NCBI GenBank assembly: GCA_004022145.1
Contig: RCNU01000009.1
Strand: one strand, 5' to 3'
Length of the DNA stretch: 64,000 bases
From: Paecilomyces variotii
Taxonomy: Eukaryota
Shown: positions 20,949-43,900 of the stretch, one piece after another
Layout: every line of letters starts with the position of its first letter
Numbering within the stretch: the stretch's first letter is position 1
Position numbers and translations under genes: made by a program
Notes under the pieces: generated by a model
Databases searched by the model: none
The model's input: only the letters and a program-made list of their open reading frames with translations
Told to the model about the DNA's origin: nothing

Positions 20949-22302
20949 TTGGAGGACCAGTCATCTCCGTCTAATGATGATGGGCGAAATGTCCATTTTT
21001 TCAATAGTTCGATGAATGACATGTTGGGCGGGCTATTACCGAATCTTCACTCCTATTATTTTTGGACTCCACGGGTTCTACCAACAAGCTGCTCTCTTTA
21101 CAACAAACCAAGAGTTCCAGCAATATCTACAGAAAATAATCCCAAGCCAAACGCAGTCCCAATGGAACCAAAATACCTTATTTAAAGTGCCATTGGCACA
21201 GCAGGAGCAGGTCTCGAGAGGGAAAGCTACCTATTGGGCCGAGAATAATTTCGATCTATGGACCAAAACCATTCTGCACCTATCAGTTCTATTCAGAATG
21301 GCTTTCTTCTTCAGTCATCTATACATCAATTATTTAACGATTATTCAATTTCAGTGAACCCAGATGTGAGTGGTTTTACCTATTGTATAGGGATATAACG
21401 GATATTCCGCTAATTCATCTGAAGGATAATTATAAGATTACTTGTTTTATCCCTGATAACTTTGGATTAGATGGAAGAATCCTTGACCCTGTATGTCTGT
21501 TGATGAATCCTGCTGATTCGGATGAAATTGGGAGATTCATCAACAAATGGTAGCATGTCCCATCAATCCAGGCATCTCCAACCATAAACCATCGTTTTCC
21601 TGTGTTCCAGGGCTCTCGCAGGGTTTTCCTGCTGTCTTGTCAAAAGCTAGGTTGATCGTCGTGATCGACACCGCTAGCACCCCTCCCCGCTGACTGCACT
21701 GTATCTACCCCATCAAGATCTCATCGAACGCCATCGATATTATCATCAGTTGAGCTCTAGAAACCTTGTGTAACCAGTCTACTGTTGTGTCTATTGTTTT
21801 GTCTGAGTTCTGTTGTCCTATTGACTGAGGCCCTCGCTGGCTACTCCGTGGTCAAGTCGTACCTCAACGCCGTGGTGGCATCATTTTTTCATCATTTTTT
21901 TCATCTCCTGCATCATCTTCATCTCCCAATTTCATCCGAATCAGCAGGATTCATCAACAATGTCGAAATCCTGCCGACCCAAATCGTGTCTCAGATAATG
22001 TCTTGCGCTGGCACTTTCGACAGAGCATTCTTAGAAACATGAGGGGAGCTGGGGAGCCTTCATGGGAACATGACTTCCCACCAGGATCTGATATGTTAAG
22101 AGAGATTCTAGAGGGACCGTTTCCAATTGAACGGTTCGAAATGGAACTTTCAGCTAGACTACAGGGGTGGCCAACGAGACCAGGACTTGACTCAGTGATA
22201 CGGAGGGACAAAAGACCAAAAGAAGGGATATGGATGGCACAGGTAATACGAGACATCAGTTATGTATTGTTCTTTAGGAAGCTGCCCGCATACATTATCT
22301 AG
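20949..22302 (+). pseudogene. Fungal HNH-endonuclease (HNH_2-type) pseudogene: frameshifted, apparently internally deleted, interrupted by a MITE
   Basis: Fragments in several frames: GRNVHFFNS...LGGL; TYWAENNFDLW; ISSIQNGFLLQSSIHQLFNDYSISVNPD, intron 21366-21424, DNYKITCFIPDNFGLDGRILDPVC, insertion, RNPADPNRVSDNVLRWHFRQSILRNMRGAGEPSWEHDFPPGSDMLREILEGP...ERFEMELSARL. These match the conserved C-terminal block of fungal HNH proteins as I recall it. Frame change near 21260; the expected central C-x-ITG/AAHI segment is not visible. Confidence 0.8.
21498..21959. mobile_element. 462-bp non-autonomous TIR DNA transposon (MITE-like), 39-bp perfect TIRs, 5-bp TSD ATGTC
   Basis: Left TIR 21498-21536 TGTTGATGAATCCTGCTGATTCGGATGAAATTGGGAGAT is the exact reverse complement of 21921-21959. 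ATGTC is duplicated at 21493-21497 and 21960-21964. No transposase ORF inside. Confidence 0.95.
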
Positions 22303-39800: not shown

Positions 39801-40040
39801 CGTTCCTTATCAGCCGAAGATTATCCTAAACAACTTTTAGTTTTGTGGAGAACTAGCCCGTTAAGTTAACTGCAGTGGGATGAATCATGAACACAGCCTT
39901 TTTTCCTTTTCCTTTTCTTTTCTACATCGCCACGTCCCATCTTACCTATCCGTCTGGATCCTCCCGACGATCCGAGTGACGAGGCATGAGACATGTATGG
40001 TAGTTTAGGTAGTTTAGTTAGAGAGTATGGCGTCAATGTT

Positions 40041-40064
40041 GGTATGGTATGGTATGGTATGGTA
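40041..40064. repeat. (GGTAT)n pentanucleotide microsatellite
   Basis: About 5 tandem GGTAT units. Confidence 0.85.
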
Positions 40065-41559
40065 GATTCACGAGAAAACCCAGCACAAGTTCACCCGCTC
40101 CAGAAGTCCCTTGGGTCTATCTAGTTAGTTAGGTGGTGAGGTGATCTGACTAAATGGCGGACGCGTTGATGCCAGGCGACCAATACAGTCAGTGTTACAC
40201 TCGATCGTGACCGTTTCGAATACTGCAAGGTATAGCGGCCAAAATAATAATAATTATCGGAGACCATTGAATATCGGGTGTTAATATTATTATTAGCCTA
40301 CGATATCCGTGATATAACTACGACATAAGCCAATATCCGAGATATTTTATTCTTATTACAACCTAAGCCCAAATACTAGTTAGTAGCAATACCTAGTCTC
40401 GGCCAAAGACTTCAACTCGACTTCACTACTGGTCTCCACTGAAGAAAGAGGGAGGAATCAGTGGCTTGCCAAAGACCGGGCCCGTTATTATTACTTTCCC
40501 ATCACACTAAATATCAACGCATTGCGTCGCCTGTCTCAAAACCTCCCGCCAGATCTTTCGATATCATTCCGCCGATTCAACTAACTAACTAATGAACATC
40601 GACGAGCGTGAACGCCAGCTAACTACGGTAACTACGTGGCGTCGAATCGGCTGAGGGATGTCCCCGGGACTAGGTAGGTAGGTCATTTGGAAACGAATCT
40701 GAGTAGACTAGGTCGCGTTACCCGATAATCTCACAAGTAGGTATGGAGCGCTCTTACGAGCTCAACCCGAACAGCAAGAGACGGTCAAAAATGCCAACAT
40801 CAGCCGCGGCAGTAAAGTGGAACTAATTTATCAAGGGATGGATGGTCGCAAACAAAACACTGCCAGCCAGCTTCCTTTTTTACCGGTCTCAGCTTCTCCT
40901 TTCCTTGCAACTAGTCTGCCATGGCCCATGGGGCAATCGTAAAGCTCAACCTTCCAGTCCACTTAACCACCCTTGTTCCAGCCGTGTATGGGAATTCCCC
41001 CACTAGATGATAGATACGATACTCCGGTACAGTAGATGATTGATAAACGAGAGCAGGCGGTCAAACTGTAATAATAGTAGAGTACCTATGTATTAATATT
41101 ACTGTAACTATCTACTTGCTTCTCTTTCCGTCCGCGGTCGATTGTTTGACTTTGGGCCATTTTTGCAACCTTGTACGGAGTATTCGAACGCACGCGGTCA
41201 ACTCTGATCTCAAACCCCATGTATCGAACTTTTTTTTTTTTAGCTCAGAATACAACTTACCTACTGGAAGAGCAAGTCGATATGCACTGGTAAGGTAATT
41301 TCCATTTTTCAATATATCCATTTTTGGCTTAGCGCCAGATTCACCATAGTTAACACGATAATTGATATGAATATCATTTTTGCCCTTCACGTTGGGGAGA
41401 ATATCTCGTCCTTTTTTTTCCTCCTAATTACTTTTCCTCAGCGGCAAAGCCAAAGCGTTTGACCAGACTAGACCAGACAAAGTCTCAATCTCATACTTCA
41501 TACTCTACGTAAACCCCGCTAACTTAGTCGAGCCTCTATTGCGAGAAAGGAAAGCGAAT

Positions 41560-43900
41560 GCGTGGCCTAAGTTCTACGATGTTGTATCCAGAGCGTTACT
41601 TTAGGATTTGCATATATTTCTTCTTGTATTCGGTCACTATCTTTTATTTTTGAGGGTAGTACTCGTTATGCTGCAGAAATAAGACATTGCGAGGGAGAGA
41701 GACGGAGAGGGAACTAATATATCAAGTTCAGAGGACAAGACAGAATACTATAGACAGATCTTGTTACCGTTGAATATTCAGTCTTGTTTTATCCTTTACT
41801 TGCTTATCGTTTTTGTTTCTATTTACGTTAAGATGATTTTCGTTTATTTATGATGCTAGTTAACAGACGGGGGTTAGATTATGTATCCTTTCTTATTACT
41901 CGGATATATATCTATCTTCAAGACCGTTGAGATATAATAAATCCCTAATCTGAAAGCACGGTAGTAGCTAGTTAGCCCTCTTAGATCTAGAGAGAGAGAG
42001 AGAGAGAGGGAGGGAGAGAGATATACATACCCTGCTGCAGTGTTGCGGTTTTTTAACCCCGCGATATACTATATCCTCGAGCAATGTATACCGTATACAT
42101 ACATACATCGAATATAACATAGTCCTGTTTACACCGGATAGATAGTTCTGACTAAGGAACTAACTACTTCTCGCAGTTCACCGCTCACTCTATAGATAGA
42201 CCTGTTTAGCATAGCGTACGAATACGATTATCGTTCTAGGGAGCAAAGCACTTACTTACTGCCTGTGGCAATTGTTATAGTCTAGTCTCTTTTATTTTTA
42301 TTCGTCTCTCTGTGAGATACTGAGATTATTCAATGATTACTATTAAGACAATAACTCACTTTACTCCGTATATAGTATCGTGTATCTCAACTAAGTTATA
42401 TGGAATACTAAATAGCATAAAACTATAGTCTAGTTTTAACTACTCGAAATATAGTTCTAGAGGAGATCTTTAATCCCCATTTATCTCCTGTAGTTATACG
42501 CAGAAATTTAATCTCGCGGAAGCGTACTACCGGACTAAGAGCTTGATTGCTTAACGAACTCAAGGATACCGAAATCTATCAACTATCTATATAAGCCGAC
42601 GGACTCTATCTCGAATTACTACCGCCCAGAGCACTGCCTCTAGTACTATTCCTTCGCATTTCTTAATTCCAGCGTATCTAGTTTAATCCTAGTATAGCTT
42701 CTGTCGGTGCACAAAGCAAACGCCAGGTAATCTGTTAATTATCCGTTTGTAGCAGGCCCTAAATATAGGGATAGAACCTACTATATTAACTAGGATCTAG
42801 ATTCTTTCATATGCTATATATAAATATAGGATTAAATCCCCCTCTTAAATCTAGAAGCAAGCAAATAATTCAAGTTATTCAGGTTAAAACCTTTCTTTAG
42901 TGCTATACAATGTTTGACAGGCTTTATGTTATTTATTCTATAGTTACTACTCTTAATATATATAGGGTAGTAATAGCATTTTGCAGCTCGCATCTATCAA
43001 AGCCGTAAGCGCTAACGCAATAAAGAATCTAGATTTTAGTAGTCTAATAGGTTCTATTCTAGATTTAGAACCTGCTGCAAAGGATGTATTTTGTGCTAAG
43101 AGAATCTCACATTAATCCACTACTGCAACAGCTTAACATAAGCCCCTGCTAATTAATACACATAAGAAAGAAGTATTAGCGCTCACGGCTTCTATAAAGG
43201 CGAGCTAACTATAAACTGGGCAATGGCTACAACAGGAAGCCACATAGCTATATCAATTAATATAACATCAAAGTAAACACGCTGGGACGATGGAATGTGT
43301 AAAACTATATTCTAGCTTAGCTTCAGACGGCAGGAATGTCAGGATAAAGTAAGTCCGTAGGTATAAATAGCTAATGGGTTTTGGTATTTTCTATTTCTCT
43401 AGGTAAGTATGATTTTATTGCTGTGTTGAATGCTTATCTAGGGTCTTTATTTCTGTGGTTTTAGATTTCCACGGGAAGATATATATATAGTTAGAGATAG
43501 TCTACAAAGAATACCAGACAGAAAGAAATCGCTTTAGACAACCCATTCATCAGTATTCGAATACTTTCGCGTTTCGAGTCTCGAACCAACTCGTCCGTCT
43601 CTATTAAAAACATGTTCATATTTATCTCGAGCGCAAAGAGTTATATCACATTAACAATATCATCCATTTGCAGCAGGTTCTTAACATCTTAATCCCAGGA
43701 TAAGATAAAACCTACTACGTAAATCCCTCAGATGTGAATTCTTCATTTTAGTTATATGCTATAGAGATAAATATCGGATTTACCTCCCCTAGTTAACTAC
43801 TAGATCTGAGTTAAGCAAGCACGTAGCTAGTACCTTCAGGATCTGACACTGCTATCTATATATCTATGTAGATGCTGCGATCCCAGGAGTCCCAAGTCCA
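41560..43900. repeat. AT-rich, RIP-like degenerate repeat or gene relic (boundaries approximate)
   Basis: Visible drop in GC, abundant TpA/TAG/CTA, and no ORF of 60 aa or more in any frame between 41390 and 44657; includes (GA)n at about 41989-42021. RIP indices not computed. Confidence 0.6.

Follow-up and report, generated by a model that had tools for sequence, protein, structure and literature searches.

A young single-copy 462-bp insertion in a Paecilomyces variotii gene with integrase-type inverted ends, possibly a misdirected retrotransposon reverse transcript

What kind of process places a non-coding insertion of 462 bp, with perfect inverted ends and a 5-bp duplication, into a gene of the mould Paecilomyces variotii? 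The insertion, here called the element, occupies positions 21498-21959 of a 64,000-nucleotide stretch of contig RCNU01000009.1 (assembly GCA_004022145.1); this whole stretch is referred to as the window. An earlier reading of the letters alone, here the sequence-only reading, had regarded the element as a miniature inverted-repeat transposable element (MITE) of a Ginger-like or unclassified family. We find that the insertion is real and recent, and we propose, with a probability of roughly 0.4, that it is the snapped-back reverse transcript of a long terminal repeat (LTR) retrotransposon since killed by repeat-induced point mutation (RIP), inserted by integrase with the end of the 5′ unique region (U5) on both sides. 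The finding covers one locus in one species.

The outer limits of the element are given by three features.

21493-21497, plus strand: left copy of the 5-bp target-site duplication ATGTC, identical to 21960-21964.
21498-21536, plus strand: left terminal inverted repeat of 39 nt, beginning TGTTGAT and 100% complementary to the right arm.
21960-21964, plus strand: right copy of the target-site duplication ATGTC, identical to 21493-21497.

The termini are TGTTG...CAACA, and the two arms (21498-21536 and 21921-21959) are perfectly symmetric over 39 nt; at arm pair 40 a T stands against a G, and no symmetry is found further in. Within the window, the first 24 nt of the end occur at two places only when up to 3 mismatches are allowed (expectation 0.01; two matches in 0 of 100 shuffles), and all 20 perfect inverted pairs of 20-mers less than 5 kb apart belong to this repeat. 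The element splits the host gene between the codons for ...ILDPVC and RNPADP.... Removal of the element together with one ATGTC restores ...GRILDPVCRNPADPNRVSDNVLRWHFRQ... in frame, and homologues from Penicillium (P0002 and P0005, reading LDPVCRNPADPN) and Penicilliopsis (P0003, reading LDLVCRDPADPN) run gap-free across the insertion site. The restored frame and the homologues that span the site together define the boundaries to the single base, and the 467 inserted bases cannot be rotated to give another duplication. Repeat search, frame test and homologue alignment thus reproduced the 39-nt repeats, the ATGTC duplication and the 462-bp boundaries claimed from the letters alone, and the regained reading frame is matched by the homologues.

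Among the 24 public runs listed, 20 hold a fraction of 0.99 of the words sampled from 21300-22200; these comprise 14 food-fermentation or grain metagenomes, which are flagged as potential sources of the window, and 6 isolate runs (one organism, three studies). Contigs of four runs, three from isolates and one metagenome, were also used for seeking relatives of the element at a likeness of at least 80%. In all four, contigs enter the element exactly 30 letters from both flanks (21200-21527 and 21930-22300) with 0 differences, and they stop there: contigs built from 31-mers are broken by the 39-nt repeat, and one more letter would have counted as bridging. No empty-site joint was reported in the contigs of these four runs. 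At the protein level, empty sites were found: P0121 (281 aa; four P. variotii accession numbers, five contigs) reads ILDPVCRNPADPNRV uninterrupted, and P0001, from one further P. variotii strain, reads ILDPVCPNPADPNRV uninterrupted. Together these are five P. variotii protein records without interruption at the insertion site. A gene-model artefact behind them was rejected: none of the possible GT...AG introns at this place would take out exactly 467 nt, so the uninterrupted proteins represent empty sites. An excision footprint in P0001, where R is changed to P beside the site, was likewise rejected; the length is unchanged and other residues differ too. With uninterrupted alleles in other strains, the insertion is polymorphic in the species and young, which supports, at the protein level, the recent movement that the sequence-only reading had assumed. 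One further P. variotii gene model, P0122, ends ...GRILDPTEHS and appears to use GTATGT at the insertion site as splice donor; this record is uninformative on the insertion in that strain.

The 462-bp unit is single-copy and not a multi-copy MITE. Summed contig depth over 21644-21902 equals that of the flank (98.4 against 94.4 in run X15; 88.1 against 88.3 in run X16). Other pieces of the element, among those listed, are only about 82% identical, close to the 80% threshold of the search, and they are RIP-mutated: going from the element copy to its relatives, C>T and G>A make up 81 of the 87 listed differences. RIP is described as experimentally active in P. variotii (PMC6300479). The element copy is unmutated, its relatives are RIP-mutated, and no other instance of the 462-bp unit as such is known among these pieces. 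The element shares with MITEs that it is short and non-coding and has inverted ends and a duplication, but the many near-identical copies of a MITE were not found, neither in the contigs of the four runs nor in the window. MITEs are multi-copy and homogeneous, and mimp of Fusarium, a fungal MITE that is also short and non-coding with inverted ends, has TA duplications in contrast to the 5 bp found here. The classification as a MITE thus fails on the depth of the interior and on the diverged, RIP-mutated state of the relatives, and an active family is not supported, the unit being single-copy and all listed relatives RIP-mutated. What did prove correct is that related ends exist elsewhere in the genome, the 48 nt of the right end being found at other loci.

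Within the window no second copy was found by blastn (7-nt words), by the exact end or by a RIP-tolerant end pattern, and the best score of a transition-blind scan (49/60) equals the maximum of 20 shuffled controls. The RIP-tolerant 30-nt end pattern gave 0 matches in metagenome contigs of the Joint Genome Institute and 0 in viral contigs. Prokaryote genomes gave two matches of the end pattern, which fall in a stretch of Arsenophonus made up of A and T only and were dismissed as chance. The single metagenome match of the hairpin pattern described below, a palindrome with which a G+C-rich bacterial contig ends, was dismissed likewise.

Stops occur in every frame of the element and none of its 5 internal open reading frames (ORFs) passed the Pfam threshold (best E = 0.13), in agreement with the earlier claim that it lacks coding capacity. 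An Rfam scan of the element gave no match, and a tRNA scan of it found none. Its RIP indices, TpA/ApT = 0.375 and (CpA+TpG)/(ApC+GpT) = 1.59, are those of unmutated DNA, as the sequence-only reading had judged from the composition of the interior. Inside the terminal repeat the following parts can be told apart.

21498-21545, plus strand: left-end hairpin with 12-nt arms TGTTGATGAATC / GATTCATCAACA and a 24-nt loop, from repeat search and folding.
21534-21545, plus strand: the terminal 12 nt of the right end (21948-21959) repeated in direct orientation, from the repeat search, as a 13-nt direct repeat.
21546-21554, plus strand: AA spacer, then TGGTAGC, much as a primer-binding site for initiator tRNA would begin behind an LTR end ...CAACA.
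21546-21843, plus strand: left interior, here called the leader, shared with RIP-mutated relatives in contigs from runs X1, X15 and X20.
21844-21911, plus strand: segment rich in TTCATC and T runs, with no relative in X15 and X16, where depth (98.4 and 88.1) is that of the flank.
21912-21959, plus strand: right end (E48), which ends ATCAACA, includes the right 39-nt repeat 21921-21959 and is shared with several other loci.

The left end consists of two parts. Its first 36 nt, 21498-21533, repeat the closing 36 nt of the element (21924-21959) exactly in reverse complement, and the inverted 39-mer and the 12-nt direct copy overlap by the letters GAT (21534-21536); the inverted repeat therefore measures 39. 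Because the left end also carries the direct copy of the right-end 12 nt, the first 48 nt form a hairpin, which folds as DNA with -10.4 kcal/mol (z = -4.3; 0 of 200 shuffles fold equally well). We propose that GAT is the microhomology of a template switch, such an overlap being what a copy-back junction would leave. Directly behind this composite end, at 21541-21554, stands ...CAACA-AA-TGGTAGC. The motif TGGTAGC, 2 nt past the internal ...CAACA, is identical to the opening 7 nt of the GalEa primer site for tRNA-Met; for this copia element the metazoan primer site is given as TGGTAGCAGAGC, directly behind the 5′ LTR (PMC5445492). In the relatives, too, a direct end is followed by AATGG..., the likeness being judged on 7 nt without the host initiator tRNA (tRNA-iMet). 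A tRNA scan of the window found 0 tRNAs. TGGTAGC has 9 occurrences on the plus strand of the window, and the chance of meeting it 0-4 nt from the internal end is about 7 in 10,000 by our own arithmetic for a motif noticed post hoc.

The relatives divide into pieces of the left interior and pieces of the right end. The former begin at 21534 or 21546, reach at most 21843 and carry about 17-18% differences; X1 record 3, for example, spans 21545-21843 (299 nt) with 55 differences and 2 gaps, and partial cover is given by records 11 and 12 of X15, 26 and 27 of X20, and 5 and 6 of X1. The segment 21844-21911 has partial matches in X20 and X1 from about 21886; it is possibly the R (repeat)/U5 part of the source LTR. 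Right-end pieces run from 21911-21914 to 21959/21960 with 1-3 differences and are joined to other upstream sequence and other flanks, as would be expected of copies of one kind of LTR end. Examples are X15 record 13 (21912-21960, 3 differences), which lies within a 4700-nt contig of single-copy depth, and X20 record 28 (21914-21960, 1 difference). Loose ends lie before 21911/21912 and behind 21959/21960. The end-like pieces reach 7-10 nt past the 39-nt repeat, and none of those listed stops at 21921. From summed depth in X15 and X20, a rough measure, there are about 5-8 extra copies of the end against 1-2 of the leader, a proportion that LTRs together with solo LTRs would give. A separate 43-nt piece of the left interior (21543-21585, 5 differences, 2 gaps) was observed inside a long single-copy contig of X15 and X16 (X16 record 19), with unrelated sequence on both sides and loose ends at 21543 and 21585.

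Where the left interior recurs, it is preceded, in direct orientation, by the final 36-48 nt of the right end, which stand before AA-TGGTAGC. In X20 the 30 letters before 21540, compared directly with the right end, show 19 identities, 8 C>T or G>A differences and 3 others, a match reached by 0 of 20,000 shuffles; the same letters compared in the orientation of the element's own left end show 11 identities, 8 differences of RIP type and 11 others. A contig of X15 joins 21947 to 21534, with 33 letters on its shorter side, so that the right end is followed by the leader AATGGTAGC. Five left-interior relatives start at 21534-21546, and none of the five is collinear into 21498-21533. The resulting order would be LTR end, 2-nt spacer, primer-binding site and leader, as in LTR retrotransposons. 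The sequence-only reading had named a match to the LTR of a retrotransposon as what would remove the novelty of the element; a layout resembling that of LTR and primer site is present in the relatives, and the match itself we infer from it.

We propose that both ends of the element are the same LTR end, namely the U5-side terminus ...GATTCATCAACA. The relatives would be the remains of a small P. variotii LTR-retrotransposon family, and TGGTAGC would be its primer site. In the course of reverse transcription that we infer, minus-strand DNA would be primed at the AA-TGGTAGC... primer-binding site and the end of U5 would be copied. A premature or misplaced transfer onto leader RNA would then allow about 300-366 nt of the leader to be copied back, with copying continuing through the primer site and a further 14 nt, that is AA and the last 12 nt of U5. 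At the 3-nt microhomology GAT/ATC the growing strand would switch onto the minus-strand U5 DNA and copy 36 nt to its end, which corresponds to a snap-back. From such a copy-back switch the perfect 39-nt repeat and its sharp edge would arise automatically. The product, with ...CAACA-3′ on both strands, would be a substrate for integrase, and integration of this linear DNA by an enzyme of retroviral type would make the 5-bp duplication. RIP has length thresholds, and these would underlie the escape of a short insertion: at less than 500 bp and with about 300-400 nt shared with its source, the insertion would escape RIP, and long copies would be destroyed.

Several properties of known systems bear on this proposal. 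The ends TGTTGAT...ATCAACA fit the consensus TGTTRNR...YNYAACA at 6 of 7 positions; this consensus, conserved over about 7 bp, is described for integrase recognition of LTRs, with specificity residing in the terminal 8-15 bp (PMC3601003). Ty1/copia elements of Pezizomycotina (GalEa, FunCo1) are described by Donnart et al. 2017 with 5′-TGT...CA-3′ ends and 5-bp duplications (PMC5445492), both of which the element has; its end signature, taken in the sequence-only reading as unusual for a fungal DNA transposon, is thus not unusual for this fungal group. It would further resemble copia elements in insertion by integrase and in a candidate tRNA-Met-type TGGTAGC start directly after the LTR end. 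It differs from them by having no direct LTRs, gag-pol or polypurine tract, by carrying the same LTR end inverted at both termini and by the length of the repeat, 39 nt against about 7-15. Fungal GalEa, as described in PMC5445492, has a palindromic hairpin site of the type CTGATCAGT in place of the primer-binding site, in which the element also differs. The proposed folding has a parallel in retroviral snap-back minus-strand strong-stop DNA, for which PMC6088434 describes nascent strands that fold or switch onto DNA and give an inverted U5/R duplication; these appear there as in vitro dead ends, whereas the product in P. variotii would have been completed, made double-stranded and integrated. 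Terminal-repeat retrotransposons in miniature possess direct terminal repeats, a primer site and a polypurine tract, while the element has a direct repeat of 13 nt only and no purine run before its right end.

A number of points weigh against an origin by reverse transcription. No family of transposable elements was matched by any of the 80 ORFs of at least 130 aa in the window (Pfam), and neither a reverse transcriptase or an integrase nor a polypurine tract or a pair of direct LTRs was seen. The primer-site match spans 7 nt only, and the host initiator tRNA does not lie in the window. The layout of the relatives can also be read as that of copies in which the 24-nt hairpin loop is flipped, and the loose end in X20 is too short upstream to decide on this. 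The contigs of X15 and X20 possibly represent a single locus from two strains, in which case the layout would be borne out by one or two relatives. Because an identity of about 82% is near the 80% threshold, the alignment stops at 21843 and 21912 are unreliable as breakpoints, and the patterns of pieces and loose ends are taken from among those listed, besides which there are 24 pieces and 25 loose ends. One of the four upstream loose ends, that of X15, is a consensus of 2 reads with an agreement of 0.67, and a second class of upstream sequence is possible. Finally, the model requires two or three template switches, and a genomic insertion bearing U5 ends on both sides is not known to us from the literature, in which no search aimed at it was made.

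That the TGT...ACA ends and the 5-bp duplication point to a retroviral-type integrase, as the sequence-only reading concluded, agrees with the descriptions in PMC2836005 and PMC3601003. The insertion works like an integrase-mediated event whose enzyme may have come from a retrotransposon or from a Ginger-type transposon; the ends and the duplication fit both. A non-autonomous deletion derivative of a cut-and-paste transposon with an integrase-like transposase (Ginger2/TDD-like or unclassified), single-copy through non-replicative movement and with longer partners killed by RIP, is the main alternative, somewhat less probable than the aberrant reverse transcript. Ginger2/TDD elements as described by Bao, Kapitonov and Jurka 2010 (PMC2836005) resemble the element in TGTNR inverted ends and a 4-5-bp duplication, and they, too, may be non-coding and dependent on an integrase-like enzyme. 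Here TGTTG...CAACA agrees with TGTNR...YNACA, the duplication ATGTC is present twice, and the perfect 39-nt inverted ends speak for it as well; the 48-nt end found with a different interior at other loci is a relationship that miniature elements and their partners often show, and a hopping single copy would escape RIP. The length of the repeat speaks against this alternative, but as a soft criterion: 39 nt lies near but below the quoted range of about 50-180 bp, given for elements with duplications of 4 bp (Ginger2) and 5 bp (TDD-4/5) (PMC2836005, PMC10045372). GTATGT (21491-21496) fits RTATAY, the AT-rich target preferred by Ginger2/TDD elements, at 5 of 6 positions; it overlaps the ATGTC duplication without being centred on it, and one site is too few to show a preference. 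The six TTCATC copies of the element (expected 0.21) lie on one strand only, those at the right end starting at 21888, 21900 and 21918 without a mirror image at the left; this asymmetry is unlike the subterminal transposase sites of cut-and-paste elements. A transposon would also leave AA-TGGTAGC behind the internal end copy to chance, and it would need a flipped hairpin loop for the end that stands direct, not inverted, before the shared interior of the relatives and its primer-site-like stretch. No transposase partner was seen among the 80 window ORFs mentioned above. With regard to fungi, a survey counts 'Ginger' as ubiquitous (PMC5751038), but as described there its only criterion was the rve domain, present in LTR elements as well, and the account of fungal Ginger in the original paper names only a vestige from Malassezia without inverted repeats (PMC2836005). 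TGTNR ends are described there as common to Ginger and Gypsy. A bridge between the two kinds of element, in which an accident of reverse transcription gave identical inverted ends and thereby a unit that was movable, or moved again, as DNA, is improbable.

A solo LTR, or an LTR element cut down by later deletions, whose LTRs have 39-nt terminal inverted repeats, is about as improbable as such a bridge. The ends of the type TG...CA (6 of 7 consensus positions) with their 5-bp duplication are those of an LTR, related ends are present at other loci, and a length of 462 bp would suit an LTR, those of GalEa measuring 138-545 bp (PMC5445492). However, inverted repeats of LTRs are described as conserved over about 7 bp (PMC3601003), so that 39 perfect nucleotides would be exceptional, and the sole direct terminal repeat has 13 nt. 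The 462-bp unit does not recur; it is the terminal 48 nt alone that recur, with other upstream sequence, and by depth X15 and X16 contain one copy of the interior 21644-21902. In a solo LTR, moreover, the primer-site-like stretch and the 300 nt that follow the end sequence in the relatives should be lacking, while for a deleted full element two separate deletions would be required in an unmutated, recent insertion. None of the listed end-like pieces stops at the 39-nt boundary, as 5′ ends of LTRs would. In fungi, short elements with inverted ends usually derive from Tc1/mariner-pogo, hAT, Mutator or PIF/Harbinger, and one of these could be involved if the boundaries had been misread. This is very improbable, as the frame and the homologues spanning the site set the boundaries, the duplicated target measures 5 bp and not TA, 8, 9 or 3 bp, the ends are TGT...ACA, and the 467 inserted bases allow no rotation to another duplication.

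The gene that received the insertion itself looks degraded.

20952-22299, plus strand: host gene of the fungal HNH_2 family (PF13391/PF25324), in decay, located by tblastn of P0001, P0002, P0003 and P0005.

The Pfam labels are taken from the homologues, the closest of which is P0001 from P. variotii with 98% identity. Compared with the P. variotii proteins P0001 and P0121, the gene has a frame change near 21264, an intron lies at about 21366-21424, and the N-terminal half no longer resembles the Penicillium homologues. From its sequence the gene looks pseudogene-like and decayed independently of the insertion. Two short host stretches, 22009-22060 and 22195-22254, have counterparts that match at about 85-93% in further contigs from the isolates, so diverged HNH-family paralogues exist in the genome despite active RIP. 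The inner part of the left repeat, GAATCCTGCTGAT (21505-21517), shares 10 of 13 positions with host AAATCCTGCCGAC (21966-21978); each encodes ...NPAD..., and in tblastn the repeat itself was aligned with the host protein. This resemblance is probably due to chance, the other possibility being a choice of target by similarity. The surroundings in the window are ordinary gene-rich DNA. An A+T-richer stretch at about 40000-43500 (G+C 0.36-0.43, without an ORF of at least 130 aa) has RIP-like indices, with TpA/ApT up to 1.37 and (CpA+TpG)/(ApC+GpT) down to 0.63. None of its 32 short ORFs matches Pfam, it is unrelated to the element by the transition-blind scan, and it may be an old mutated repeat.

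In the literature searched nothing relevant was found as an earlier description of the element, and the listed matches to the terminal 12-mer were unrelated by title. If the element is a Ginger-like derivative, it would be the first described inverted-end element with a Ginger signature in Eurotiales, as far as the literature was searched. If the bridge applies, it would be a living example of a possible origin of Ginger-type elements from LTR elements in Pezizomycotina. Under our proposal the locus would bear on the origin of the shared TGTNR ends and on whether Ginger or LTR elements came first, as discussed in PMC2836005 and PMC3601003. If our proposal of an aberrant reverse transcript is true, the element is a clean and datable by-product of an LTR retrotransposon that mimics a DNA transposon, and a retro origin may apply to other 'MITEs' annotated with TG...CA ends and 5-bp duplications. 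The locus would then also show how a derivative of less than 500 bp can stay intact under active RIP while its longer relatives are destroyed.

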